From positions 62,001-126,000 of the forward strand of contig NW_026948142.1 of assembly GCF_963921235.1 (NCBI RefSeq): a DNA stretch of 64,000 nucleotides. The letters are read 5' to 3'. Source of the stretch: Mobula hypostoma. Lineage: Eukaryota. The position numbers and the translations under genes are program-made. The number at the start of each line of letters is the position of its first letter. Position 1 is the stretch's first letter. Shown piece by piece: positions 2,571 to 64,000 of the stretch. The notes beneath the pieces are model-generated. The model worked only from the letters and a program-made list of their open reading frames with translations, had not been told where the DNA came from and ran no database searches.

Positions 2571-4620
2571 TTAAGCAGTTCTAACAAGAATTGCTACAAA
2601 AAGAAACAGTTCCTTTTGGCTCAAAGTGATCATAGTGTTGTAAGCTGTCGTGATTAGGACTGTGCAGGTTAACTCAAGGTTGAAGTCAAACTGCTGTTCC
2701 GGAATCTGGTAATGTGGGACTTCATGCTTTGCACTCTTTGCACAAAGGTAGTTGTGAGGAGATGTCATGGGCTGGACGGTGGGGACCCTTGATGTTAGAT
2801 GTTGCCTTCTTGATGTCGCACTTCCTCAACACTACTGATGGTGGGGAGAGGCATCCCCGTGAGGTATGGCAGAGTTCACTATTTTCTGTAGCTTCTATGT
2901 TGCATTTTAGAGAGTTGTTGTAGATGCATTCATCCAGGCAAGTGGAGAGTACTGATATTTCTGATCTGCTTGATAGACGAACTGAATAAGTATTTTCCAT
3001 CACTCTTCACTGTGGAAGACACAGCAATATGGTGGAAGATTCAGGTGTCAGGGGCCATGAAGTGTGTGAAGTTACCATAACTAGACAGAAGGTTCTTGGG
3101 AGACTGAAAGGTCTAAAGGAAGATAAATCACCTGGAGCAGATTCTTGATTGGTCAGAGTATGAAAAGATACAGGAGATTGTATCAGAAGGATAGGCAGGT
3201 AGGCAGAGGAGGTGGCGTGGCTTTATTGGTAAGAAATGATATCAAATCATTAGGAAAAGGTGACATAGGATTGGAAGGTGCAGAATCTTTATGGGTTGAG
3301 CTAAGAAATCGCAGGGGTAAAAGGACCCTGATGGCAGTTATTTATAGGCCTCCAAACAGCTGCAGTGATGTGGACTACAAATTACAACAGGAAATAGAAA
3401 AGGCTTGTCAGAAGGGCAGTGTGATGATAATTGTGGGGGATTTTAACATGTGAGTGGATTGGGAAAATCAGGTCGGCACTGGATCTCAAGAGAGAGAATT
3501 TGTAGAATGTCTGCGAGATGGCTTTTTAGAACAGCTTGTTGTTGAGCCCACTAGGGGATCGGCTGTACTGGATTGGATATTGTGTAATGAACCAGAGGTG
3601 ATTAGAGAGATTGAGGTAAAGAAACCCTTAGGAGGCAGTGATCATAACATGATTGAGTTCACTGTGAAATCTGAAAAAGAAAAGCCAAAATCCGATGTGT
3701 CGGTATTTCAGTGGAGTAAGGGAAATTACAGTGGCATGAGAGAGGAACTGGCCAAAGCTGACTGGAAAGGGACACTAGCAGGAAGGACGGCAGAGCAGCA
3801 GTGGCTGGAGTTTATGCGAGAAGTGAGGAAGGTGCAAGGCAGACATATTCCAAAAAAGAAGAAATTTTCGAATGGAAAAAGGATGCAACCATGGCTGACA
3901 AGAGATGTCAAAGCCAAAATTAAAGCAAAGGAAAGGGCATACAAGGAAGCAAAAATTAGTGGGAAGACAGAGGATTGGGAAGTTTTTAAAAGCTTACAAA
4001 AGGAAACTAAAGAAGGTCATTAAGAAGGAAAAGATGAACTATGAAAGGAAGCTAGCAAATAATACCAAAGAGGATACTAAGAGCTTTTTCAAGTATATAA
4101 GGAGTAAAAGATAGGTGAGAGTAGATATGGGACCAATAGAAAATGATGCTGGAGAAATTGTAATCGGAGATAAGGAGATGGCAGAGGAACTGAACGAGTA
4201 TTTTGCATCAGTCTTCACTGAGGAAGACATCAGCAATATACCGGACACTCAAGGGTGTCAGGAAGGAGAAGTGTGCGCAGTCACAATTACGACAGAGAAA
4301 GTACTCAGGAAACTGAATAGTCTAAGGGTAGATAAATCTCCCGGACCAGATGGAATGCACCCTCATGTTCTGAAGGAAGTAGCGGTGGAGATTGCGGAGG
4401 CATTAGCAATGATCTTTCAAAAGTCAATAGATTCTGGCATGGTTCCGGAGGACTGGAAGATTGCCAATCTCACTCCGCTATTTAAGAAGGGGGCAAGGAA
4501 GCAAAAAGGAAATTATAAACCTAAACAACAGGAATGCTGCAGATGCTGGAAATTCAAGCAACACACATCAAAGTTGCTGGTGAACGCAGCAAGCCAGGCA
4601 GCATCTCTAGGAAGAGGTGC

Positions 4621-4656
4621 AGTCGACGTTTCAGGCCGAGACCCTTCGTCAGGACT
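4621..4656 (-). ncRNA. Minimal type-I hammerhead ribozyme motif in the PLE 3' terminal region
   Basis: Minus strand reads AGUC-CUGACGA-AGG(GUCUCGG)CCU-GAAA-CG-UC^GACU. It has the full catalytic core, stem I AGUC/GACU, stem II AGG/CCU and a palindromic ACGU minimal stem III. Predicted cleavage falls between 4625 and 4624. Activity is not shown. Confidence 0.8.
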
Positions 4657-4951
4657 AACTGAAGGAAGAGTGAGTAAGGGATTTGGTAGTTGGAGGGGGA
4701 GGGGGAGATCCAAAATGATAGGAGAAGACAGGAGGGGGAGGGATAGAGCCAAGAGCTGGACAGGTGATAGGCAAAAGGGGATACGAGAGGATCATGGGAC
4801 AGGAGGTCCGGGAAGAAAGACAAGGGGGGGGGTGACCCAGAGGATGGGCAAGAGGTATATTCAGAGGGACAGAGGGAGAAAAAGGAGAGTGAGAGAAAGA
4901 ATGTGTGCATAAAAATAAGTAACAGATGGGGTACGAGGGGGAGGTGGGGCC

Positions 4952-6438
4952 TTAGCGGAAGTTGGAGAAGTCGATGTTCATGCCATCAGGATGGAAGCTA
5001 CCCAGACGGAATATAAGGTGTTGTTCCTCCAACCTGAGTGTGGCTTCATCTTTACAGTAGAGGAGGCCGTTGATAGACATGTCAGAATGGGAATGGGATG
5101 TGGAATTAAAATGTGTGGCCACTGGGAGATGCTGCTTTCTCTGGCGGACAGAGCGTAGATGTTCAGCAAAGCGGTCTCCCAGTCTGCGTCGGGTCTCGCC
5201 AATATATAAAAGGCCACATCGGGAGCACCGGACGCAGTATATCACCCCAGTCGACTCACAGATGAAGTGTTGCCTCACCTGGAAGGACTGTTTGGGGCCC
5301 TGAATGGTGGAAAGGGAGGAAGTGTAAGGGCATGTGTAGCACTTGTTCCGCTTACACGGATAAGTGCCAGGAGGGAGATCAATGGGGAGGGATGGGGGGG
5401 ACGAATGGACAAGGGAGTTGCGTAGGGAGCGATCCCTGCGGAATGCAGAGAGGGGGGGAGGGAAAGATGTGCTTAGTGGTGGGATCCCGTTGGAGGTGGC
5501 GGAAGTTACGAAGAATAATATGTTGGACCCGGAGGCTGGTGGGGTGGTAGGTGAGGACCAGGGGAACCCTATTCCTAGTGGGGTGGCGGGAGGATGGAGT
5601 GAGAGAAGATGTACGTGAAATGGGGGAGATGCGTTTAAGAGTAGAGTTGATAGTGGAGGAAGGGAAGCCCCTTTCTTTAAAAAAGGAAGACATCTCCCTC
5701 GTCCTAGAATGAAAAGCCTCATCCTGAGAGCAGATGCGGCGGAGATGGAGGAATTGTGAGAAGGGGATAGCGTTTTTGCAAGAGACAGGGTGAGAAGAGG
5801 AACAGTCCAGATAGCTGTGAGAGTCAGTAGGCTTATAGTAGACATCAGTGGATAAGCTGTCTCCAGAGACAGAGACAGAAAGATCTAGAAAGGGGAGAGA
5901 GGTGTCGGAAATGGACCAGGTAAACTTGAGGGCAGGGTGAAAGTTGGAGGCAAAGTTAATAAAGTCAACGAGTTCTGCATACGTGCAAGAAGCAGCGCCA
6001 ATGCAGTCGTCGATGTAGCGAAGGAAAAGTGGGGGGCAGATACCAGAATAGGCACGGAACATAGATTGTTCCACAAACCCAACAAAAAGGCAGGCATAGC
6101 TAGGACCCATACAGGTGCCCATAGTTACACCTTTAGTTTGGAGGAAGTGGGAGGAGCCAAAGGAGAAATTATTAAGAGTAAGGACTAATTCCGCTAGACG
6201 GAGCAGAGTGGTGGTAGAGGGGAACTGATTAGGTCTGGAATCCAAAAAGAAGCGGAGAGCTTTGAGACCTTCCTGATGGGGGATGGAAGTATATAGGGAC
6301 TGGACATCCATGGTGAAAATAAAGCGGTGGGGGCCAGGGAACTTAAAATCATCGAGAAGTTTAAGAGCGTGAGAAGTGTCACGAACATAGGTCGGAAGGG
6401 ATTGAACAAGGGGTGATAAAACCGTGTCGAGGTATGCA
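4952..6438 (-). pseudogene. PLE reverse transcriptase / GIY-YIG endonuclease, N-truncated and frameshifted near 5455
   Basis: RT motifs FTMDVQSLYTSIP, GVTMGT, LRYIDD, FLDL and YYKPTD (ORF 5379-6554). GIY-YIG region C..C..C, VIYCVRC..CGLLYIGET, RFAEH, GMN (ORF 4952-5845) lies in a different frame. Confidence 0.88.
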
Positions 6439-7976
6439 GAAATTATAAACCTGTTAGCTTGACATCGGTGGTAGGGAAGTTGTTGGAGTCTATTGTCAAG
6501 GATGAGGTTACGGAGTACCTGGAGGCATATGACAAGAAAGGCAGAACTCAGCATGGTTTCCTTAAAGGAAAATCCTGCCAGACAAACTTATTACAATTTT
6601 TTGAGGAAATTACAAGTAGGCTAGACAAGGGAGATGCAGTGGATGTTGTATATCTAGATTTTCAGAAGGCCTTTGAAAAGGTGCCACACATGAGGCTGCT
6701 TAGAAAGATAACAGCCCATGGAATTACGGGAAAGTTACATATGTGGATAGGGCTTTGGCTGATTGGCAGGCAACAGACAGTGGGAATAAAGGGATCCTAT
6801 TCTGGTTGGCTGCCGGTTACCAGTGGTGTTCCACAGGGGTCCGTGTTGGGGCCGCTTCTTTTTACATTGTACATCAACGATTTGGATTATGGAATAGATG
6901 GCTTTGTGGCTAAGTTTGCTGATGATACAAAGATAGGTGGAGGGGCCGGTAGTGCTGAGGAAACAGAGAGTCTGCAGAGAGATTTGGATAGATTGGGAGA
7001 ATGGGCAAGGAGGTGGCAAATGAAGTACAATGTTGGAAAGTGTATGGTTATGCACTTTGGCAGAAGAAATAAATGGGCAGACTATTATTTAAGTGGGAAG
7101 AGATTTCAAAGTTCTGAGATGCAACGGGACTTGGGAGTCCTCATGCAAGATACCTTTAAGGTTAATCTCCAGGTTGAGCCGGTGGTGAAGAAGGTGAATG
7201 CAACGTTGGCATCCATTTCTAGAGGAATAGAGTATAGGAGCAGGGATGTGATGTTGAGGCTCTATAAGGCACTGGTGAGACCTCACTTGGAGTACTGTGG
7301 GCAGTTTTGGTCTCCTTATTTAAGAAAGGATGTGCTGACATTGGAGAGGGTACAGAGAAGATTCACTTGAATGATTCCGGGAATGAGAGGGTTAACATAT
7401 GAAGAATGTTTGTCCACTCTTGGACTGTGTTCCTTGGAGTTTAGAAGAATGAGGGGGGACCTCATAGAAACATTTCAAATGTTGAAAGGCAAGTTGTTTC
7501 CCATGATGGGGGAGTCTAGTACGAGAGGGCACAACTTAAGGATTGAAGGGCGCCCATTCAGAACAGAGACGTGAAAAATTTTTTAGGTGGTGAATCTGTG
7601 GAATTTGTTGCCACGGGTGGCAGTGGAGTCTAAGTCATTGGGTGTATTTAAGGCAGAGATTGATAGGTATCTGAGTAGCCAGGGCATCAAAGGTTATGGT
7701 GAGAAGGTGGGGGAGTGGGACTAAATGGGAGAATGGATCAGCTCATGATAAAATGGTGGAGCAGACTCGATGGGTCAAATGGCTGACTTCTGCTCTTTTG
7801 TCTTATGGTTTTATGGAGTGTCCAATGATGCAATGTTACAACTTCACAGCTGAATCTAAATTGAGAGTCAAGTTATCTCCTTTGTGCTTTTAATTTGGAT
7901 ATCTAAATGTACATCAGCTGCATGCTTTACCTGGTGCCTGTCTTAGTTTCAAGTAGTTCTTTGAGTACAAGTATTA

Positions 7977-27957: not shown

Positions 27958-28094
27958 AACCACAAACAAGAGAGAATCTGCAGATGCTGGAAATCCAAGC
28001 AACACACACAAAATGCTGGCAGAACCCAGCAGGCCAGGCAGCGTCTATGGAAAAGTGTACAGTCAATGCTACAGACTGAGACCCTTCGGCAGGA
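27958..28094 (-). mobile_element. Short PLE-terminus unit with degenerate hammerhead
   Basis: Homologous to 4523-4660 (AAAC...CTGCAGATGCTGGAAAT.CAAGCAACACAC...GAGACCCTTCG.CAGGA); core positions are mutated. Confidence 0.75.
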
Positions 28095-28302
28095 GGCATG
28101 CATTCAGGTTTCTGGAAAACTGGGACCTCTTCTGAAGCAGCTGGGACCTGTACAAAAAGGATGAGTTGTACTTGAATCTGAGGGTGACCAGTATTCTTGC
28201 CAGCAGATTTACTAGTGCTTTTGGGAGTAGTTTAAACTAATATGGCAGGGGGATTGGAACCAGGATGATAGAGATGATAGAGCTGAGGATGAAATAGCAG
28301 GT

Positions 28303-38047: not shown

Positions 38048-38309
38048 TGTGTAGGCATGTGGCCAAGTGGTTAAGGCATTGGACTAGTGATCTGAAGGTT
38101 GTGAGTTCGAGCCCCAGCTAAGGGAACATGTTGTGTCCTTGAGCAAGGCATTTAATCACACATTGCTCTGCGACGACAGTGGTGACATGGAGAGGGGAGA
38201 CTTATAGCATGGGCAACTGCTGGTCTTCCATACAACCTTGCCCAGGCCTGCACCCTGGAGAGTGAAGACTTGGTCTTGCAAGACTAACGGATGCCTTTAC
38301 TTACTTACT
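38048..38309 (+). mobile_element. tRNA-derived SINE
   Basis: A box TGGCCAAGTGG, B box GAGTTCGAGCC, core GTGTCCTTGAGCAAGGCA, (TACT)n tail; TSD TACAT(A/G)TGAAT (38037-38047 and 38310-38320). Confidence 0.85.
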
Positions 38310-44029: not shown

Positions 44030-44143
44030 AAGAATTGATAGATAGTCTCAGTTCAAAACACTGACTGCTAATCCCCTCCATAGATGTTACTTGATGTGCT
44101 GAGTTCCTCCAACATTTTGTGCGTGTTACTCTGGATTTCCAGT
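44030..44143 (+). mobile_element. Degenerate PLE-terminus unit
   Basis: ATAGATG...TGCTGAGTTCCTCCA.CATTTTGTG...GGATTTCCAG matches the unit consensus. Confidence 0.55.
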
Positions 44144-44144
44144 A

Positions 44145-44695
44145 TAGAGTCATACAAAAGTGCAGCACAGAAACAGACTCTTTAGCCACTCTCATCCATG
44201 CCAGACTGTCTACTCCTATTGATCAGCACCAGGACCATAACCCTCCATATCCCTACCACCCATGTACCTATCCAAACTTCTCTTAAACATTGAAATCAAG
44301 CTCACATGCACCACTTGCACAGTCATCTCGTTCCACACTCTCATGACCCTCTGAGTGAAAAAGTTTTCCCTCATGTTCCTCTTAAATTTTTCACCTTTCA
44401 CCCTTAACCCATGACCTCTAGTTGCAATCCCACCCAACCTCAGTGGAACAAAGCTGCTTGCATTTACCCTATCTATACCCCTCACAATGTTGTCTACCTC
44501 TATCAAATCTCCTTTCAGTCTTCTATGTTCCAAGGAATAAAATCCAAACCTATTCAATCTTTCCTTATGACGCAGGTTCTCCAGTCCCAGCAACATACCT
44601 GTGAGTTTTTTCTATACTCTTTTAACCTTATTTACAACTTTCCTGTAGATAGATGACCAAAACTGCACACAATAGTCCAAATTAGGCCTAACCAG
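44145..44695 (-). mobile_element. CR1 3' portion
   Basis: ORF 44216-44596. Confidence 0.8.
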
Positions 44696-44829
44696 CTGGC
44701 CACTGTCCAACTTGTAACCAACTGGCCCTGTGTCTCCTGGTAACTCTGTAAATGAGCATTTGACAGGAAATGACATCATCAGCCATGTCTCAGTGGAAAA
44801 GATGGCATTTGTACAGCTAATCATAAGCA

Positions 44830-44940
44830 TAACAGATTCTGCAGATGCTGGAAATCCAGAATAACATGCACAAAATGCTGGAGGAACTCAGCAGGTCAGG
44901 CAGCATATAATAGTTGACGTTTTGGGGCATCCCTCATCAT
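44830..44940 (-). mobile_element. Degenerate PLE-terminus unit
   Basis: CTGCAGATGCTGGAAATCCAG...AAAATGCTGGAGGAACTCAGCAGG...GTTGACGTTTT..CCTCATCA. Confidence 0.6.
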
Positions 44941-45139
44941 TTGTACAGGCAATGGTTTACACCGGGAGATGAATTTCCTCAGTTCTCTGCCATAATTCAC
45001 ACCTAAATTAATTTGTCAGACGAATGCTGGTAATTTACTAGCAGAGGATTAGTAGGCCAAGTGGCCTTTTCCTGTGTTGTAATTGTTCTGTCATCCTATG
45101 GTTTAATTCCTCTAACATAGTCAATGACTATATAAATTG

Positions 45140-45439
45140 CAAACATGAGGAAATCTGCAGATGCTGGAAATTCAAACAACACACACAAAATGCTGGTGGA
45201 ACGCAGCAGTTCAGACAGCATCTATAGGAAGAGGTACAGTCGACGTTTCGGGCCGAGACCCTTTGTCGGGACTAACTGAAAGAAGGGATAGTAAGAGAGT
45301 CAGGACTAACTGATAAGAAGAGATAGTAAGAGTTTCAGTTAGTCCTGACGAAGGGTCTCGGCCCAAAACGTCAACTGTACCTCTTCCTATAGATGCTGCC
45401 TGACCTGCTGTGTTCCACCAGCATTTTGTGTGTGTTGCT
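45140..45439. mobile_element. Inverted doublet of PLE-terminus/hammerhead units inserted as one piece
   Basis: 15-bp TSD TGACTATATAAATTG (45125-45139 and 45440-45454). Mutated hammerhead motifs at 45238-45273 (-) and 45341-45376 (+). Confidence 0.85.
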
Positions 45440-46484
45440 TGACTATATAAATTGGTTTATTATTGTCACATGTAGCAAGGTACAGTGAAAAACCTATCTT
45501 CCACACTGTTCATACAGATCAGATCATTACACGGCATTGAGCTAGAACAAAGAAAAAACAATAACAGAATGCAGAATAAAGTGCTATAGTTACAGAGAAA
45601 ATGCAGAGCAGGCAGACAATAAGGTACAAAATCACAACAAGGCAGATTGTGAGGTCAACACTCCATCTTATCGTACTAGGGGACTGTTCAGTAGTCTGAT
45701 AACAGCGGGCAGAAGCTGTCCTTGAACCGGGTGGCATATGCTTTTAGGCTCATGGATCTTCTGTCAATGGGGGTGCCTGGGATGGTATGATAACTGTTTT
45801 ACTGAGACACTAAGAAGTGTGGACAGAGAGTATGGAGGAGTGGCTAGTTTCTGTGATGTGCTGAATAGTATCCACAGTTTTCCATATTTCTCCCTGTGCT
45901 GATCACTCCTTCTCTCCAAGATCTCTTCCCCGATCTGCTCTACACAGCTTTCAAGCTTTGATCCCTGTCACCTTGCCACCCACTCCCTACCCATCCTCCA
46001 ACATCTGCTCCCAAGCTCTCCATATCTTTCTCTTTAACAAATCTCCTCAGGACATCAAAAAAGTTTCCAGAAAGAACTAAACTCTGTACTGGCTGCCACT
46101 CCTTGTATCTGAGATGTGATTCATTCGAAGAAAATAATTTCAGAACTGAATTCAGTGCTCCAACACATAATTAATCTCAGAATTAACCTATCACATGCAA
46201 AATATTAATTAAGAACCAGTTGTGGCTGCTCAGCCTGTTTCGTAACTGGTTGCTGTGAGCAGCTATTACAAATTACCTGCTGGGAACAGGCAAACACTGT
46301 TCAGTGCACAACAGCTGGTGCAGGAAAGGTGAGAATTAGTGATTTGTACTGAGGCTGTAGTCCTTCATAAGTAAATACATTTCCAGCTATCATGGAGGAA
46401 ACCTCTCGACACAATATTATGAGGTAATGTTCAGCTTCTTTAGCGCAGTGGGCAAGGTGATGAAAATCCAAAAATGTAAATAGT

Positions 46485-46595
46485 CCTGAAACGTCAACTC
46501 TTCAATCCATAGATTCTGCCTGACCTGCTGAATTCCTCCGGCATTTTGTGAGTGTTACTCAGGATTTTCAATATCAGCAGAATCTCATGTTTGTA
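46485..46595 (+). mobile_element. Degenerate PLE-terminus unit, truncated within the hammerhead
   Basis: CCTGAAACGTCAACT...ATAGATTCTGCCTGACCTGCTG...CAGCAGAATCTCATGTTTG. Confidence 0.6.
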
Positions 46596-47022
46596 AATAG
46601 TCCCTCTTCACCAAGGGCTGGCAGGGTAGAGGTGTGGAGATGGCTCCAATTCAGCAGGGCTAAGACTTATAGGAAACTATGCAGGTATGCTGAGAATTCT
46701 GATTGTTTCATATTGGAGACAGATGTTCCCTATAAAACACTAGGCCTGGTTCTTTCTTCACATACTCTGCCTGATCCACTAAATGTTTACAGCAGTCTAA
46801 ACTTTAATACAATTGAGCTCTTCCACACTGCCCTTGGCTCTAAACTCAGAGGCACCAACCAACCAGACTGCAAAGGGAAACAGAGTAGCATTGTTCTGGA
46901 ACAACATCAGCCAAGGCTTTGGAACGTGAGGGCTCAGTACCAGCCATTCTTCAATTCACTTCAGTTTCAAGTGTAAACAGGACGGGAATTGACATGTTTA
47001 AAACATCATATTGACTTTGTAC

Positions 47023-47220
47023 CACACACGAAATGCTGGAGAAACTCAGCAGATCAGGCAGCATCTATGGAGAGGAATAATCACAAACAAGAGAAAATCT
47101 GCAGATGCTGGAAATCCAAGCAACACACACAAAATGCTGCAGGGACTCAGCAGGCCAAGCAGCATCTATGGAAAAGAGTACAGTCAATGTTTCAGTCCAA
47201 GACCCTTCACCTGGACTGAC
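47023..47220 (-). mobile_element. Two adjacent PLE-terminus units (partial + complete, degenerate hammerhead)
   Basis: 47082-47220 matches 27958-28094; 47023-47080 is a partial older copy. Confidence 0.65.
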
Positions 47221-47284
47221 AAAGGTTAGCAAGTCGTGTCAAGTCAACAACTGTCTGTCAGAATGGTTAGATTTAACTTACAGA

Positions 47285-49125: not shown

Positions 49126-52100
49126 TAGAACTATAGAACCTTAGAACATTACAGCACAGAAACAGGCCTTTTGGCCCTTCTTGGCAGTACTGAACCATTT
49201 TTCTGCCTAGTCCCACTGACCTGCACCTGGACCATATCCCTCCATACACCGCTCATCCATGTACCTGTCCAAATTTTTCTTAAATGTTAAAAGTGAGCCT
49301 GCATTTACCACTTTATCTGGCAGCTTATTCTACACTCCCACCACTCTCTGTGTGAAGAAGCCCCCTTCCGAATATTCCCTTTAAACTTTCCCCCCCTCAC
49401 CCTTAATCCATGTCCTCTGGTTTTTTTCTCCCCTTGCCTCAGTGGAAAAAGCCTGCTTGCATTCACTCTATCAATACCCATCATAATTTTATATACCTCT
49501 ATCAAATCTCCCCTCATTCTTCTACGCTTCAGGGAATAAAGTCACAACCTATTCAACCTTTCTCTGTAACTCAGTTTCTCAAGTCCCGGCAACATCCTTG
49601 TAAACCTTCTCTGCACTCTTTCAACCTTATTTATATCCTTCCTGTAATTTGGTGACCAAAACTGCACACAATACTACAGATTCGGCCTCACTAATGCCTT
49701 ATGCAACCTCACCATAACATCCCAACTCTTATACTCAATTGATTTATAAAGGCCAATGTACCAAAAGCTCTCTTTACGACCCTATCTACCTGTGACACCA
49801 CTTTTAGGGAATTTTGTATCTGTATTCTCAGATCCTTCTGTTCTACTGCACTCCTCAGTGCCTTACCATTTACCCTGTATGTTCTACCTTTGTTTGTCCT
49901 TCCAAAGTGCAATACCTCACACTTGTCTGTATTAAACTCCATCTGCCATTTTTCAGCCCATTTTTCCAGCCGGTCCAAGTCCCTCTGCAGTCTCTGAAAA
50001 CCTTCCTCACTGTCTACTACACCTCCAATCTTTGTATCATCAGCAAATTTGCTGATCCAATTGACCACATTATCATCCAGATCATTGATATAGATGACAA
50101 ATAACAATGGACCCAGCACTGATCCCTGTGGCACACCACTAGTCATAGGCCTCCACTCAGAGAAGCAATCCTCCACTACCACTCTCTAGCTTCTTCAAAT
50201 GAGCCAATATCTAATCAAATTTACTACCTCCCCAGGTATACCTAGCGACTGAATCTTCCTAACTAACCTCCCATGCGGGACCTTGTCAAAGGCCTTACTG
50301 AAGTCCATGTAGACAACATCCACCGCGTTCCCTTCATCCACTTTCCTGGTAAACTCCTCGAAAAACTCTAATAGATTGATTAAACATAACCTACCCTGCA
50401 CAAAGCCATGTTGACTCTCCTTAATAAGTCCCTGGCTATCCAAAAACTTGTAGACCCTATCTCTTAGTACTCCTTCCAATAATTTACCTAATACCGACGT
50501 CAATCCTACCAGCCTATAATTTCCCGGGTTACTTTTAGAGCCTTTTTAAAATAACGGAACAACATGAGCAGTCCTCCAGCAACTCACCCATAGATACCGA
50601 CATTTTAAATATATCTGCCAGGGCCCCTGCAATTTCAACACTAGTCTCCTTCAAAGTCCGAGGGAATACCCTGTCAGGTCCTGGGGATTTGCCTCAAGAT
50701 AGCAAGCACCTCCTCCTCCTCAATCTGTATAGGTTCCATGACCTCACTACTTATTTGCCTTATTTCCATTGACTCCATGCCAGTTTTCTTAGACAGACGC
50801 AAAAATCCCATTTAAAATTTCCCCCACTTCTTTTGGTTCCATACATAGCCGACCACTCTGATCTTCAAGAGGACCAATTTTATCCCTTATTATCCTTTTG
50901 CTCTTAATATACCTGTAGAAGCTCTTTGGATTATCCTTCACCTTGACTGCCAAAGCAACCTTATGTCTTCTTTTAGCCCTCCTGATTTCTTTCTTAAGTT
51001 TTTTTTTTAACTTTTTATACTCCTCAAACACCTTATTTGCTCCCTGTTTCCTACACATGTCATACATCTCTCTCTTCTCCTTTATCAGAGTTGCAATATC
51101 CCTTGAGAACCAAGATTCCTTATTCTTATTCACTTTGCCTTTAATCCTGACAGGAACATACAAACTCTGCACTCTCAAAAATTCTCCTTTGAAGGCCTCC
51201 CACTTACCAATCACATCCTTGCCAGAGAACAACCTGTCCCAATCCACGCTTTTTAGAACCTTGACGAAGGGTCTCGGCCTGAAACGTCGACTGTACCTCT
51301 TCCTAGAGATGCTGCCTGGCCTGCTGTGTTCACCAGCAACTTTGATGTGTGTTGCTTGAATTTCCAGCAACTGCAGAATTCCTCTTGTTTGCCTTTTTAG
51401 ATCCTTTCTCATTTCTTCAAATTTGGCCTTTTTCCAGTTTAGAACCTCAACCCGAGGACCAGATCTATCTTTATCTATGATCAAGTTGAAACTAATAGTG
51501 TTATGATCACTGGAACCAAAGTGTTCCCCTACACACACTTCTGTCACCTGTCCTAACTCGTATCCTAACAGGAGATCTAATATTGCACCCTCTCTAGCTG
51601 GTACCTCTATATATTGATTCAGAAAACTTTCCTGAACACATTTTACAAACTCTAACCCATCTAGACCTTTATCAGTATGGGAATCCCAATCAATATGTGG
51701 AAAACTAAAAACTAAAATCCCCTACTTTATGTTTCCTGCAGTTGTCTGCTATCTCTCTGCAGATTTGCTCCTCCAATTCTCGCTGACTATTGGGTGGGCT
51801 ATAATACAACCGATTAATGTGGTCATACCTTTCCTGTTTCTCAGCTTCACCCATACGGCTTCAGTGGACAAGCCCTCTAATCTGTCCTGCCTGAGCACTG
51901 CTGTAACATTTTCCCTGACCAGCAATGCTACCCCACCCCCCACCCTTCATTCCTCTGCCTCTATCACATCTGAAACAGCAGAACCCTGGAACATTAAGCT
52001 GCCAGTCCTGCCCCTCCTGCAGCCAAGTTTCACTAATGGCTATAATGTCGTAATTCCATGTGTCAATCCACACCTTCAGCTCATCAACCTTCCCCACAAT

Positions 52101-57686: not shown

Positions 57687-59529
57687 CATAGACTGTAAAA
57701 GGGCTGGATGGTTTGGAGTTTGTAAAATGTGTGCAGGATAGTTTTTTGCAGCAATACATAGAGGTACCAACTAGAGAAGGGGCAGTGTTGGATCTCCTGT
57801 TAGGGAATGAGATTGGTCGGGTGACGGAGGTTTGTGTTGGGGAGCACTTCGGGTCCAGTGATCACAATGCCGTTAGTTTCAATATAATAATGGAGAAGGA
57901 TTGGTTTGGACCCAGGGTTGATATTTTTGATTGGAGAAAGACTAACTTTGAGGAGATGCGAAAAGATTTAGAAGGAGTGGATTGGGACAAATTGTTTTAT
58001 GGGAAGGATGTAATAGAGAAATGGAGGTCATTTAAAGGTGAAATTTTGAGGGTACAGAATCTTTATTTTCCTGTTAGGTTGAAAGGAAGGGTTAAAAGTT
58101 TGAGAGAGCCATGGTTTTCAAGGGATATTGGAAACTTGGTTCGGAAAAAGAGAGATAGCTACAATAAATATAGGCAGCATGGAGTAAATGAGGTTCTCGA
58201 GGAATATAAAGAATGTAAAAAGAATCTTAAGAAAGAAATTAGAAAAGCTAAAACAAGATACGAGGTTGCTTTGGCAAGTAGGGTAAAAATAAATCCAAAG
58301 GGTTTCTACAGTTATATTAATAGCAAAAGGATAGTGAGGGGATCAAATTGGTCCTTTAGAGAATCAGAGTGGACAGCTATGTGTGGAACCAAAAGAGATG
58401 GGGGAGATTTTGAACAAATTCTTTTCTTCAATATTCACTGAGGAGAAGGATATTGAATTGTGTAAGGTTAGGGAAACAGGTAGGGAAGTTATGGAAACTA
58501 TGATGATTAAAGAAGAGGAAGTACTGACGCTTTTAAGGAATATAAAAGTGGATAAGTCTCTGGGTCCTGACAAGATATTCCCTAGGACCTTGAGGGAAAT
58601 TAGTGTAGAAATAGCAAGGGCTCTGACAGAAATATTTCAAATATCATTAGAAACGGGGATGGTGCCAGAGGATTGGCATATTGCTCATGTTGTTCCATCA
58701 TTTAAAAAGGGGTCTAAGAGTAAACCTAGCAATTATCGGCCTGTGAGTTTGACATCAGTGATGGGTAATTTGATGGAAAGTATGCTTAGAGATGGTATAT
58801 ATAATCACCTGGATAGACAGGGTCTGATTAGGAACATTCAACATGGATTTGTGCGTGGAAGGTCATGTTTGACAAATCTTAATGAATTTTTTGAAGAGAT
58901 TACTAGGCAAGTTGACGAGGGTAGAGCAGTGGATATTGTCTATATGGACTTCAGTAAGGCCTTTGACAAGGTTCCACACGGAAGGTTAGTTAGGAAGGTT
59001 CAATCGTTAGGTATTAATATTGAAGTAGTAAAATGGATACAGCAGTGGCTGGATGGGAGACGCTAGAGAGTAGTAGTGGATAACTGTTTGTCAGATTGGA
59101 GGCCAGTGTCTAATGGTGTGCCTCAGGGATCTGTACTGGGTCCAATGTTGTTTGTCATATACATTAATGATCTGAATAATGGGGTGGTAAATTGGATGAG
59201 GTAAGTATGCAGATGATACTCAGATATGTGGAGCTGTGGATAATGAAGGAGGTTTTCAAAGTTTGCAGAGAGATTTAGGCCAGTTAGTAGAGTGGGCTGA
59301 AAGATGGCAGATGAAGTTTAATACTGATAAATTGAGGTGCTACGTTTTGGTAGGACTAATCAAAATAGGACATACATGGTAAATGGTGGGGTATTGAAGA
59401 ATGCAGTAGAACAGAGGGATCTAGGAATAATGGTGCATCATTCCCTGAAGGTGGAACCTCATGTGGATAGGCTGGTGAAGAAAGCTTTTGGTATGCTGGC
59501 CTTTATAAATCAGAGCATTGAATATAGGA

Positions 59530-61457
59530 AACAACAGGAATTCTGCAGATGCTGGAAATTCAAGCAACATACATCAAAGTTGCTGGTGAACGCAGCAGGC
59601 CAAGCAACATCTATAGGAAGAGGCGCAGTCGACGTTTCAGGCCGAGACCCTTCGTCAGGACTAACTGAAGGAAGAGTGAGTAAGGGATTTGAAAGCTGGA
59701 GGGGGAGGGGGAGATGCAAAATGATAGGAGAAGACAGGAGGGGGAGGGATAGAGCCGAGAGCTGGACAGGTGATAGGCAAAAGGGGATACGAGAGGATCA
59801 TGGGACAGGAGGTCCGGGAAGAAAGACAAGCGGGGGGGTGACCCAGAGGATGGGCAAGAGGTATATTCAGAGGGACAGAGGGAGAAAAAGGAGAGTGAGA
59901 GAAAGAATGTGTGCATAAAAATGAGTAACAGATGGGGTACGAGGGGGAGGTGGGGCCTAGCGGAAGTTAGAGAAGTCAATGTTCATGCCATCAGGTTGGA
60001 GGCTATCCAGACGGAATATAAGGTGTTGTTCCTCCAACCTGAGTGTGGCTTCATCTTTACAGTAGAGGAGGCCGTGGATAGACATGTCAGAATGGGAATG
60101 GGATGTGGAATTAAAATGTATGGCCACTGGGAGATCCTGCTTTCTCTGGCGGACAGAGCGTAGATGTTCAGCAAAGCGGTCTCCCAGTCTGCGTCGGGTC
60201 TCACCAATATATAAAGGGCCACATTGGGAGCACCGGACGCAGTATATCACCCCAGTCGACTCACAGGTGAAGTGATGCCTCACCTGGAAGGACTGTTTGG
60301 GGCCCTGAATGGTGGTAAGGGAGGAAGTGTAAGGGCATGTGTAGCACTTGTTCCGCTTACACAGATAAGTGCCAGGAGGGAGATCAGTGGGGAGGGATGG
60401 GGGGGACGAATGGACAAGGGAGTTGTGTAGGGAGCAATCCCTGCGGAATGCAGAGAGGGGGGGAGGGAAAGATGTGCTTAGTGGTGGGATCCCGTTGGAG
60501 GTGGCGGAAGTTACGGAGAATAATATGTTGGACCCGGAGGCTGGTGGGGTGGTAGGTGAGGACCAGGCGAACCCTATTCCTAATGGGGTGGTGGGAGGAT
60601 GGAGTGAGAGCAGATGTACATGAAATGGGGGAGATGCGTTTAAGAGCAGAGTTGATAGTGGAGGAAGGGAAGCCCCTTTCTTTAAAAAATGAAGACATCT
60701 CCCTCGTCCTAGAATGAAAAGCCTCATCCTGAGAGCAGATGCGGCGGAGACGGAGGAATTGCGAGAAGGGGATGGCGTTTTTGCAAGAGACAGGGTGAGA
60801 AGAGGAATAGTCCAGATAGCTGTGAGAGTCAGTAGGCTTATAGTAGACATCAGTGGATAAGCTGTCTCCAGAGACAGAGACAGAAAGATCTAGAAAGGGG
60901 AGGGAGGTGTCAGAAATGGACCAGGTAAACTTGAGGGCAGGGTGAAAGTTGGAGGGAAAGTTAATAAAGTCAATGAGTTCTGCATGCGTGCAGGAAGCAG
61001 TGCCAATGCAGTCGTCGATGTAGCGAAGGAAAAGTGGGGGACAGATACCAGAATAGGCACGGAACATAGATTGTTCCACAAACCCAACAAAAAGGCAGGC
61101 ATAGCTAGGACCCATACGGGTGCCCATAGCTACACTTCTAGTTTGGAGGAAATGGGAGGAGCCAAAGGAGAAATTATTAAGAGTAAGGACTAATTCCGCT
61201 AGACGGAGCAGAGTAGTGGTAGAGGGGAACTGATTAGGTCTGGAATCCAAAAAGAAGCGGAGAGCTTTGAGACCTTCCTGATGGGGGATGGAAGTATATA
61301 AGGACTGGACATCCATGGTGAAAATAAAGCGGTGGGGGCCAGGGAACTTAAAATCATCGAAAAGTTTAAGAGCGTGAGAAGTGTCAAGAACATAGGTCGG
61401 AAGGGATTGAACAAGGGGTGATAAAACAGTGTCGAGGTATGTAGGATATAGGATATG
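59530..61457 (-). mobile_element. Penelope-like element, copy 2
   Basis: TSD TTGAATATAGGA (59518-59529 and 61458-61469). RT ORF 60384-61547 and GIY-YIG ORF 59957-60850 are nearly identical to copy 1. Confidence 0.93.
59627..59662 (-). ncRNA. Minimal type-I hammerhead ribozyme motif (PLE copy 2)
   Basis: Identical 36-nt motif to 4621-4656. Confidence 0.8.
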
Positions 61458-64000
61458 TTGAATATAGGAGTTGGAATGTAATGTTAAAATTGTACAAGGC
61501 ATTGGTAAGGCCAAATTTGGAGTATTGTGTACAGTTCTGGTCACCAAATTATAGGAAAGATGTCAACAAAATAGAGAGAGTATAGAGAGGATTTACTAGA
61601 ATGTTACCTGGGTTTCATCACCTAAGTTACAGAGAAAGGTTGAACAAGTTGGGTCTTCATTCTTTGGAGTATAGAAGGTTGGGGGGGACTTAATAGAGGT
61701 ATATAAAATTATGAGGGGGATAGATAGAGTTGACGTGAATAGGCTTTTTTCCATTGAGAGTAGGGGAGATTCAAACAAGAGGACATAAGTTGAGAGTTAG
61801 GGGGCAAAAGTTTAGGAGTAACACGAGGGGGAACTTCTTTACTCAGAGAGTGGTAGCTGCGTGGAATGAGCTTCCAGCAAAAGTGGTAGAGGCAGATTCG
61901 ATATTGTCATTTAAAGTAAAATTGGATAGGTATATGGACAAGAAAGGAATGGAGGGTTATGGGCTGAGTGCAGGTTGGCAGGACTAGGTGAGAGTAAGCG
62001 TTCGGTATGGACTAGAAGGGCCGAGATAGCCTGTTTCCGTGCTGTAATTGTTATATGGTTATACGGTTATAATTTGGTTGAAGTTTTGTAGATTATTTGA
62101 GTTTAATAATTTAATTCTTTCTAGTAATATCTATCTTAATTATTTTTAAACCATCAATTTTGGATAAGGCCTTTTAAATTTGGAAAACCAAGGGAATAAT
62201 AACTTTTTCAGATTTGTTTTAGGGGACCGTTTAATGTCTTTTTCTCAGTTAGCGGATAAATATGATTTATCAAATGTATACTTTTTTAGATATTTACCAA
62301 TTAGGAATTTTTTACATGGTTTGTTGCCAAATTACCCTTCTGCTTTTCCACCTAATATGATAGATGTTCTATTTCAGTTTAAACCATTTCAAAAAGGGTT
62401 GATAGCTATAATCTATAAACGGATATTGAGTTTACGAATTATTTCTAATGACAAAGTTAAAGGCGCTTGGGAATTGGAACTTCAAAAGTCATTTTCAGAT
62501 AATCAATGGAGTAAAATCTTTCATTTGATTAACAACTCATCTATTTGTGCCCATCATTCCTTGATACAGTTTAAGGTAGTGCACCAGGCCCATATGTCAA
62601 AGGATAAACTAGCACCTATTTTCTCCAATATTAATCCTATTTGTGACAGATGTAATACTGAGTTGCCCAGTTTAACTCATCTGTATTGGTCTTCTGTAAA
62701 GCTAGTTAACTTTGGGAGATGTTTTTAAAACGCTATCAAGAGTTTTGAATCTGGACCTACAACCTCACTTGCTTATGGCAATTTTTGAGATTATCCCTTC
62801 GGAAGCAGGAAATATTCCTGTTTCAACTCAACGTATGACAGCCTTTTCGACCTTACTGGCTGGGAGAGCCATTTTACTGAAGTGGAAGGATTCTAATCCA
62901 CCTACGGTCTTTAACTGGCTCTCCTCCATCATCTCCTGTTTATGTTTAGAGAAAATAAGAAGTTGGACATTTGATGCATCCTTTAAATTTGAACAAATAT
63001 GGTGACCTTTTTGCAATATTTTCATTTAATTTGATTTATTGTGCTTTCAAGTTCTTTTCTCGAGGTTTTAGATTTGATCAGAAAGTTTTTCTCTCCTCTT
63101 TTTTCGATTGTATCCTCAAAATGGACTGCCCAGTCCCTTCTGTTTTGTTTGTTCTGTTTTTTTTAATAGTGTAGTGGGGTTTTTTCTCTCTCTATTTAAA
63201 ACCCAATTTTTTTTTTCCTTTCTCCTTTTAATTGGTAAGAGGAGAATTGTTATGTGAGGGGTTTCTTATTTTTATGTCACAGCGCAGTCTAATTAAAATG
63301 GCTTCTTTGTTATGTTATAATTAATTGTCCCTAGACGACAGCGAGCCGAGCGACCCTGAGGCTGGCCAGGGGGGATACAGTTATTTTCTTTTTTTTATTA
63401 TATATTTTATACTAGTTTAACAACATCTATGATTTTGACAGTGTCTATTTTAATCTTGATTACTGATATATATATTTGAACTAATTCTCCTCTTGATTGT
63501 AGCTATGGTTTTTTAAATCAATAGAAAGATTAATAAAGAAAGAAAGGAAAGGCAGATGAGCTCAGGGCATGAATCAACACCCTGATTTATGATATTGTAG
63601 CCATCAGTGAGACTTAGTTACAGGAGGGGCAGGAATAACAGGTCAATATTTCCGGGTTCCATTGCTTTAGATGCAACAATGGGAGGGCTTAAGGAGGAGG
63701 GGTGAGTGGGTTCCTCGTCAGGGAAAAGATCACTGCAGTGCTCAGTCAGGACAGACTGGAGAGCTCATCTAGTGAGGCTTTATGGGTGGAACTGAGAAGT
63801 AAGGAAGGATATGACCATGTTAAAATGGCTATATTATAGACTGGAGACAGTTGAGTTCTGGGCTGGACATCTTGCTCACTTAATGAAGGCAAAGCATCTT
63901 TCATAGCCTCACCTTTCCAGATGTCGTGATGGCCACAGGACCATTGTTTGGCTTGCCGTGCAGGTGGTCACTTGCATATGGCGTCTCCGATGCTGCTGTG

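Follow-up and report, generated by a model that had tools for sequence, protein, structure and literature searches.

In the 64-kb stretch of Mobula hypostoma DNA analyzed here (the window), a 36-nt hammerhead motif is found on the minus strand at positions 4656-4621, and a second, identical one at 59662-59627. The initial annotation of this DNA, made without database searches, had placed the motif at the 3' end of a Penelope element. This assignment holds, the motif lying in the 3' terminal repeat, with reverse transcriptase (RT) and GIY-YIG endonuclease sequences located upstream on the same strand. In the first of two long copies of this Penelope-like element (PLE), the hammerhead sits 300 nt 3' of the stop codon, on the coding (minus) strand of the element. 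The features of the locus are listed in Table 1.

Table 1. Hammerhead motifs, long copies and short terminal fragments of the Penelope-like element in the window.
Feature	Positions	Strand	Basis or details
Minimal type-I hammerhead motif, copy 1 (with fifth pair of stem I)	4620..4657	-	Sequence, descriptor, alignment
Minimal type-I hammerhead motif, copy 2, identical	59626..59663	-	Sequence, descriptor, covariance model
Copy 1 stem I	4657-4653 pairing with 4624-4620	-	
Copy 1 core C3-A9	4652-4646	-	
Copy 1 extra A	4645	-	
Copy 1 stem II	4644-4641 pairing with 4636-4633	-	Loop 4640-4637
Copy 1 G12-A14	4632-4630	-	
Copy 1 palindrome ACGU	4629-4626	-	C17 at 4625
Predicted cut after C17	Copy 1 4625/4624; copy 2 59631/59630	-	
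PLE copy 1	4523..6438	-	5'-truncated, frameshifted between RT and endonuclease; nested in a CR1/L2-type LINE relic
Copy 1 coding remnant	4952..6438	-	C-terminal part of RT, CX4CX2C linker, GIY-YIG endonuclease with CCHH-type residues
Copy 1 stop codon	4954-4952	-	
Pyrimidine-rich untranslated stretch	4657..4951	-	From stop codon to hammerhead
Terminal stretch behind the cut	4523..4619	-	Long hairpin; z -2.1 for 4624-4523
Target-site duplication of copy 1	Left 4509..4522, right 6439..6452	+	14 bp
PLE copy 2	59529..61444 (end approximate)	-	In another LINE relic; same frameshift
Target-site duplication of copy 2	Left 59518..59528, right 61458..61468	+	11-12 bp
Head-to-head pair of short terminal fragments	45140..45442	.	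One 15-bp duplication, 45125-45139 and 45440-45454
Short terminal fragment	51258..51390	+	9-bp duplication; starts at hammerhead core, 5' strand of stem I lost
Older short terminal fragment	44829..44941	-	Flanked by 11-bp direct repeat; 5' end inside core
Older short terminal fragment	46483..46585	+	Flanked by 11-bp direct repeat; 5' end inside stem II
Decayed terminal fragment, related subfamily	47080..47227	-	Tail-only piece 47021-47074
Decayed terminal fragment, related subfamily	27961..28095	-	
Strongly decayed terminal fragment	44037..44145	+	

Both long copies lack roughly the first 395 of some 890 codons, their sequence starting near residue 396 of 889; in full-length relatives RT and endonuclease are encoded in a single ORF of about 750-950 aa. 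A total of 1061 protein relatives were found, the best named ones coming from rays (74-95% identity). Pfam recognizes in copy 1 the truncated RT (PF00078, E 2e-5, below the curated cut-off) and the GIY-YIG domain (PF01541, E 1e-4), while the endonuclease of copy 2, 91% identical to that of copy 1, misses E 0.001. The linker between the two domains reads C-KRNK-C-YT-C (C-X4-C-X2-C) in both copies. According to Craig et al. (2021, PMC8557442), a CX2-5CxxC linker distinguishes Neptune and Nematis elements; judging from its two domains and this linker, the element is an endonuclease-positive PLE, probably of Neptune/Nematis type.

The two long copies are 96.7% identical, with 67 differences in 1919 columns (about 3.5%), and in the endonuclease frame they show 3 synonymous and 15 non-synonymous codon differences, which is the expectation for neutral decay. 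They are independent, dead insertions, since their target duplications are distinct and each lies in a different LINE relic. At the 5' junction of copy 2, some 13 nt of filler (61445-61457) consist of short repeated pieces of the target sequence. The terminal stretch of the element has two end points, one at about 4523 (long tail) and the other at about 4554-4557 (short tail). CR1/L2-type LINE relics of several families crowd the window (3450-4522, 6439-7810, 57690-59528, 61458-62060 and many others), and both long PLE copies and the fragment at 51258 are nested in such relics. A tRNA-like sequence on the plus strand at 38059-38118 (Rfam tRNA, 25.5 bits, below the cut-off) is probably the head of a tRNA-derived SINE.

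The sense-strand reading of 4621-4656 previously proposed is exact as the reverse complement, and the second copy at 59627-59662 is indeed identical. Every conserved core nucleotide that had been claimed is found, C3 U4 G5 A6 N7 G8 A9, G12 A13 A14 A15.1, U16.1 and H17 being complete in both long copies. Stem I is open-ended, as in type I, and consists of 4-5 bp, the fifth being a U-G pair at 4657/4620; stem II is closed and has 4 bp. The two stems pair as had been suggested, but the AGG/CCU register assigned to stem II is probably one base off: in both copies an extra A is followed by GGGU/GCCU with a CUCG loop, and G10.1 pairs with U. In an alignment of 17 motifs described below, the A-U pair that would open stem II in the earlier register occurs in 2, and a G10.1-Y11.1 pair in all 17. 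Loop 3 is absent and an ACGU palindrome extends over positions 15.1/15.2 to 16.1/16.2; this combination of a palindrome, also pointed out in the initial annotation, with the lack of a real stem III is the form described as dimer-dependent in PMC4209133. The cut site had been located correctly as well, 102 nt from the element end at 4523. The motif is a minimal hammerhead (min-HHR) of the kind already known from Cervera and de la Pena (2014, PMC4209133).

Allowing up to three mismatches, 5 matches to the motif were obtained in the 64-kb window and none in 100 shuffles, and among the five closest motifs in the window all core bases are kept only in the two long copies. A structural descriptor (core boxes, stem I of at least 3 bp, stem II of at least 3 bp, and U16.1-H17) matched the window twice, in both long copies and nowhere else; dinucleotide shuffles gave one match in 2/300 and two in 0/300, that is, 0.007 expected. 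A covariance model with rough calibration, built from the motifs of 16 relatives only and with no window sequence, found both long copies (36.5 bits, E 1.4e-7) and also three decayed copies (E 5e-5 to 2e-3), and otherwise none below E 0.4. A chance match to a short consensus could be argued from the bare pattern CTGANGA-N5..35-GAAA, seen 11 times in the window for 8.45 expected, from an Rfam scan of the whole window in which hammerhead families were absent at E <= 5, and from the folding z-score of the 36-mer (-0.37), which is uninformative for the motif. The Rfam result may be due to the motif lacking the closed stem III that the hammerhead models in Rfam expect. The reading as a chance match is refuted by the descriptor counts, by the independent covariance model and by the presence of the motif in the same place, with different stems, in 14/34 relatives (from the best 80 of 437 loci), and its probability is close to nil. 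Two other Rfam matches were discarded as chance or hairpin artefacts: one to PrrB/RsmZ over 4581-4691 (22 bits, with a cut-off of 44) and a spurious one to mir-961 on the fold-back pair 45140-45442.

These relatives come from a metagenome scan for related elements, in which the best 80 of 437 loci were taken and 34 of them combined a match to the endonuclease with 300 nt or more of DNA downstream. A descriptor-perfect motif lies 67-301 nt behind the ORF in 14 of the 34 and a motif one base off in 4 further ones, the searched downstream place being without it in 16; as controls, the ORF bodies (0/34) and 200 shuffles gave none. The motif was also present upstream of the ORF at five loci, one of which has it at both ends, 3152 nt apart, so that a complete element would carry it in its leader too. 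This last locus (L030:269-3449) is a complete related element with hammerheads in both terminal repeats and a compensated AUAU palindrome, and could serve as a good natural template for a dimer test. Although the descriptor does not demand it, the palindrome was found in 10/14 downstream and 5/5 upstream matches, once as AUAU.

The alignment of 17 motifs comprises 16 relatives and the window copy. The core is invariant in it, while the stems differ in compensating ways, and covariation reaches 0.66, compared to 0.20 in shuffled and at most 0.13 in slid alignments, a value that is partly circular given that the rows were preselected by the pairing descriptor. Two-sided changes affect 4/5 pairs of stem I and 3/4 of stem II; the extra A is present in 17/17, and G10.1 pairs with C in 15 and with U in 2, including the window copy. 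The alignment excludes L018, L023 and L026, which nearly duplicate the L010 family and whose palindromes are each broken at one base, as well as any additional copy from the same locus and L001:5559, probably a chance match; its stem III counts therefore appear cleaner than those of the full set.

At least 20 listed sequencing runs contain the element. Region 4500-4800 matched 119,941 contigs of a DNA run (X1) and 8,854 of a run guessed to be RNA (X9); the percentages that follow are summed contig depth, not copy counts, and the counts of differences are incomplete. The only motif variants reaching at least 4% in these two runs were CpG transitions and U11.1->C, the latter at 19% and 21% of the family depth and with the G10.1 pair kept. 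Among the eight CpG positions in the motif, G8->A was the rarest change (5.9% in X1 and 1.7% in X9) and C7->U, at a free position, the commonest (15.4% and 8.0%), the CpG changes other than G8->A spanning 8.6-15.4% in X1. Core conservation across genomic copies, which the initial annotation had made a point to verify, goes in the right direction, but the difference in variable non-CpG sites between motif (1/28) and flanks (23/215) is not significant (Fisher p 0.20). This comparison is weak because copies decay regardless; the conservation signal sits between lineages, not among genomic copies. Nor can the identity of the two long copies be taken as a sign of selection, since 36 identical nucleotides are expected by chance with P about 0.28.

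Positions 4523, 4557, 4620 and 4655/4656 are among the top 12 loose ends in these contigs (there are 604 more), and similarity to other subfamilies or flanks appears to break at both edges of the motif. The motif is common to 522 contigs of X1 and 109 of X9 whose tails have diverged beyond 4620, which points to one or more further abundant subfamilies with the same hammerhead. Rare contigs (three in X1) with joints 4656->4622 and 4655/4656->4619/4620 contain the hammerhead repeated directly in tandem, with a unit of about 35 nt, so that natural dimers of adjacent motifs exist at other places in this organism. Relatives of the element were not found in viral contigs.

The count of two copies given in the initial annotation is right for intact motifs, but eight short, decayed terminal fragments of the same or related families are also present in the window. 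With the terminal 240 nt as query, nine further matches were obtained at E < 0.05, namely eight arms reaching the motif and one tail-only piece. The 5' ends of all eight arms fall at the equivalents of about 4634-4685, inside or just upstream of the motif, and five of the arms are bounded by target-like direct repeats; in the older arms, similarity may stop there because subfamilies have diverged rather than because the copy was truncated. This cluster of 5' ends, together with the loose ends at 4655/4656, could correspond to an RT block, a transcript start, a splice site or a subfamily boundary. In the head-to-head pair the left arm has the long tail and the right arm the short one, the tails differing by 31-34 nt, and both hammerheads are decayed (U4/G8 changed at 45238-45273, G12 changed at 45341-45376). 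A short partial repeat is located in the middle of this insertion, at about 45299-45333. The two long copies have the 3' terminal repeat only, an inverted partner and a one-sided tail being seen in the head-to-head pair.

Folding was predicted with a model that leaves out tertiary contacts and protein. For the lone 38-mer, a rod in which GACG of the core pairs with CGUC (-11.0 kcal/mol) is preferred over a hammerhead-like fold (-7.0 kcal/mol, probability 0.0006). Inclusion of 30 nt of upstream sequence abolishes stems I and II and shifts the pairing of the core to the pyrimidine tract (0.82), the last 15 nt of the untranslated stretch being those predicted to pair with the core. For two strands, the lowest energy corresponds to an extended rod duplex and not to a double hammerhead, and the ACGU duplex alone contributes -1.7 kcal/mol. 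According to this model, a lone copy is unlikely to be active. An upstream anti-hammerhead hairpin acting as a conserved switch was rejected as not general, since sequestration of the core by upstream sequence reaches 0.3 or more in only 4/16 relatives. On the minus strand at 4655-4675 there are a branch-point-like CUCAC, a pyrimidine tract and two AG directly before stem I, with no clear donor seen; this stretch reads like a 3' splice site, and the intron of Drosophila virilis Penelope is reported to end at the 5' end of helix I (PMC4209133).

Previous reports have established that the lone minimal motif is inactive and that dimers and trimers are weakly active (PMC4209133), and one of nine natural Xenopus dimers was found to cut in vitro (Li, Clavereau and Pollet, bioRxiv 10.64898/2026.07.22.740005). 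For PAc, a Poseidon element from Anolis carolinensis, Frangieh et al. (2024, PMC11167929) described cleavage as dependent on C3, on G8 and on the protein of the element, but dispensable for insertion, and RNA-seq reads ending at the cut site were not found. In the window, no copy or arm starts at the cut site; it is crossed by the two long copies and by nine of ten terminal arms, and the tenth arm stops about 8 nt short of it, on the 3' side. The cDNA was thus copied through the site, which means that the RNA template was either not cut at this point or joined again after cutting. A parallel exists in the anole element, in which the RNA used for insertion is uncut and copying is initiated at two internal positions 3' of the hammerhead (PMC11167929). 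As for the contigs, they cannot show RNA ends and are silent on cleavage. Cleavage is probably conditional, dimer-dependent or protein-assisted, and would take place in tandem source transcripts rather than in solitary copies.

We therefore consider it likely that a Neptune/Nematis-type PLE carries this motif in its pseudo-LTR as a minimal type-I hammerhead, off when alone and a conditional cutter in tandem sources. Selection on transposing source elements would keep the motif, and these sources would stand in tandem, which would place it both in the leader before the next ORF and behind the previous ORF. A lone motif would be off, as stem III cannot close, the core would pair with its own CGUC in the rod and upstream pyrimidines would sequester the core. 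Cutting after C17 would require the pairing of two motifs through ACGU, folding of the motif by the protein of the element, or both, and it would trim multimeric transcripts to unit length. Reverse transcription, presumably primed 70-100 nt downstream of the cut on uncut or re-joined RNA, would copy through the motif, so that a single passive hammerhead would be left close to the 3' end of each insertion. In the window, which contains no tandem or full-length source element, both solitary copies would be passengers, most likely with no cutting at a useful rate.

The initial annotation had gone further in proposing self-cleavage of the element RNA some 100 nt before its 3' end, probably by two copies in cis or in trans; read as a routine step, this cut would belong to the making of the template for transposition. 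The position of the site, the conservation of the palindrome in relatives, the weak cutting reported for dimers of the Schistosoma motif (PMC4209133) and one contig each in X1 and X9 joined at exactly 4624 back to 4551 would be consistent with it. However, routine cutting would part the priming region from the body of the element, and long copies and arms cross the site and never begin at it; 4624/4625 is missing from the top 12 loose ends (with 604 more), and catalytic mutants of the anole element insert normally in vitro (PMC11167929), all of which makes this version decidedly unlikely. It is also unlikely, if somewhat less so, that the motif persists for a role in protein binding or structure, or as a splice or leader signal, with cleavage marginal or lost: the catalytic core is exactly the invariant part across relatives while the stems turn over, and the anole motif does cut, with rescue at C3/G8 (PMC11167929).

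A separate question is raised by the 5' ends, as both long insertions start in the middle of RT at the same nucleotide (+-2; 6436-6439 and 61441-61444) and share one frameshift, in a C/CT tract, despite their different targets. The frameshift may be a slippage hot spot, since gene models of another ray also leave the frame in that tract, and the common start could derive from a re-mobilized truncated source, an RT block, one round of copying on a circular template, or coincidence. The third of these would follow if tandem transcripts were cut by the hammerhead to unit length and circularized, the circle being the template; the intact motif in the DNA would then record the re-ligated junction and a single copying round would fix the 5' end. 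Such a cut-and-rejoin route was proposed in PMC4209133 and would explain both the same start base and the common frameshift of two independent 1.9-kb insertions. Against it, neither tandem units nor junctions of tail to body occur in the window, microhomology with the target makes the 5' junction of copy 1 resemble an ordinary truncation, only two copies are involved, and in 53 loci of distant relatives the breakpoints spread over residues 9-529 with no cluster at the start residue of the copies, so that we regard this route as improbable. Very improbable is its combination with further steps, by which the 1.9-kb copies would be one-round cDNAs of a hammerhead-made circle from a tandem, already truncated and frameshifted unit, that is, a retrozyme bearing a protein remnant and mobilized in trans, the upstream pyrimidine tract holding the ribozyme off until splicing or transcript start. 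If true, the circular template would account for the identical 5' ends and the intact motif, and a shared 5' end stemming from a cut-and-rejoined circle would give genomic support to a step that has until now been a proposal.

The likely conditional hammerhead described above shares with the min-HHR of metazoan PLEs (PMC4209133) the type-I form, the CUGANGA box plus an extra base, the G10.1 that opens stem II, the absence of loop 3, the palindrome, the U-rich 5' flank, the place in a terminal repeat and the occurrence mostly as single scattered copies from truncated elements. It differs in its short stem II (4 bp), opened by G-U instead of the usual G10.1-C11.1, and in its host, since min-HHR were reported there in Xena, Poseidon and Neptune elements of fish and cartilaginous fish are not among the hosts in the passages and alignment consulted. 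Like PAc, the window element has its hammerhead upstream of two RT start sites that give rise to the one-sided tail, the main site of PAc lying 85-92 nt behind the cut and the window ends at about 70 and 102 nt, and its inserted copies keep the uncut motif. PAc belongs to another clade, however, and its activity has been demonstrated, whereas the window motif is known from sequence; the ORF of PAc starts inside stem II, while ATGs in the window tail are closed by stops and the relatives of the window element start their ORF well over 100 nt behind the cut (PMC11167929).

Similarities with Neptune/Nematis elements as described in PMC8557442 include the C-terminal GIY-YIG domain, the CX2-5CxxC linker and CCHH motif, heavy 5' truncation, an inverted partner copy, a hammerhead near the 3' end and a one-sided tail of 30-40 bp, with 31-34 nt in the window pair; the (TA)n target is not shared, the window copies having inserted into LINE relics at AT-rich positions. 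Animal non-LTR retrozymes also have a type-I hammerhead derived from PLE terminal repeats, and hammerhead retrozymes were reported in the one cartilaginous fish sampled (bioRxiv 10.64898/2026.07.22.740005). In contrast to those non-coding tandem arrays, the window copies are single and dispersed, with 55 kb between them; they derive from coding elements, a coding remnant preceding each motif, and are flanked by target duplications. In a literature search that covered mainly freely available papers, nothing relevant was found on min-HHR or Penelope elements in cartilaginous fishes.

This work adds a cartilaginous-fish family to a class of ribozymes described in 2014, which is of little significance as it stands. 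Being young and very abundant and having its core intact, the family constitutes usable material for tests of dimer-dependent versus protein-assisted cleavage.
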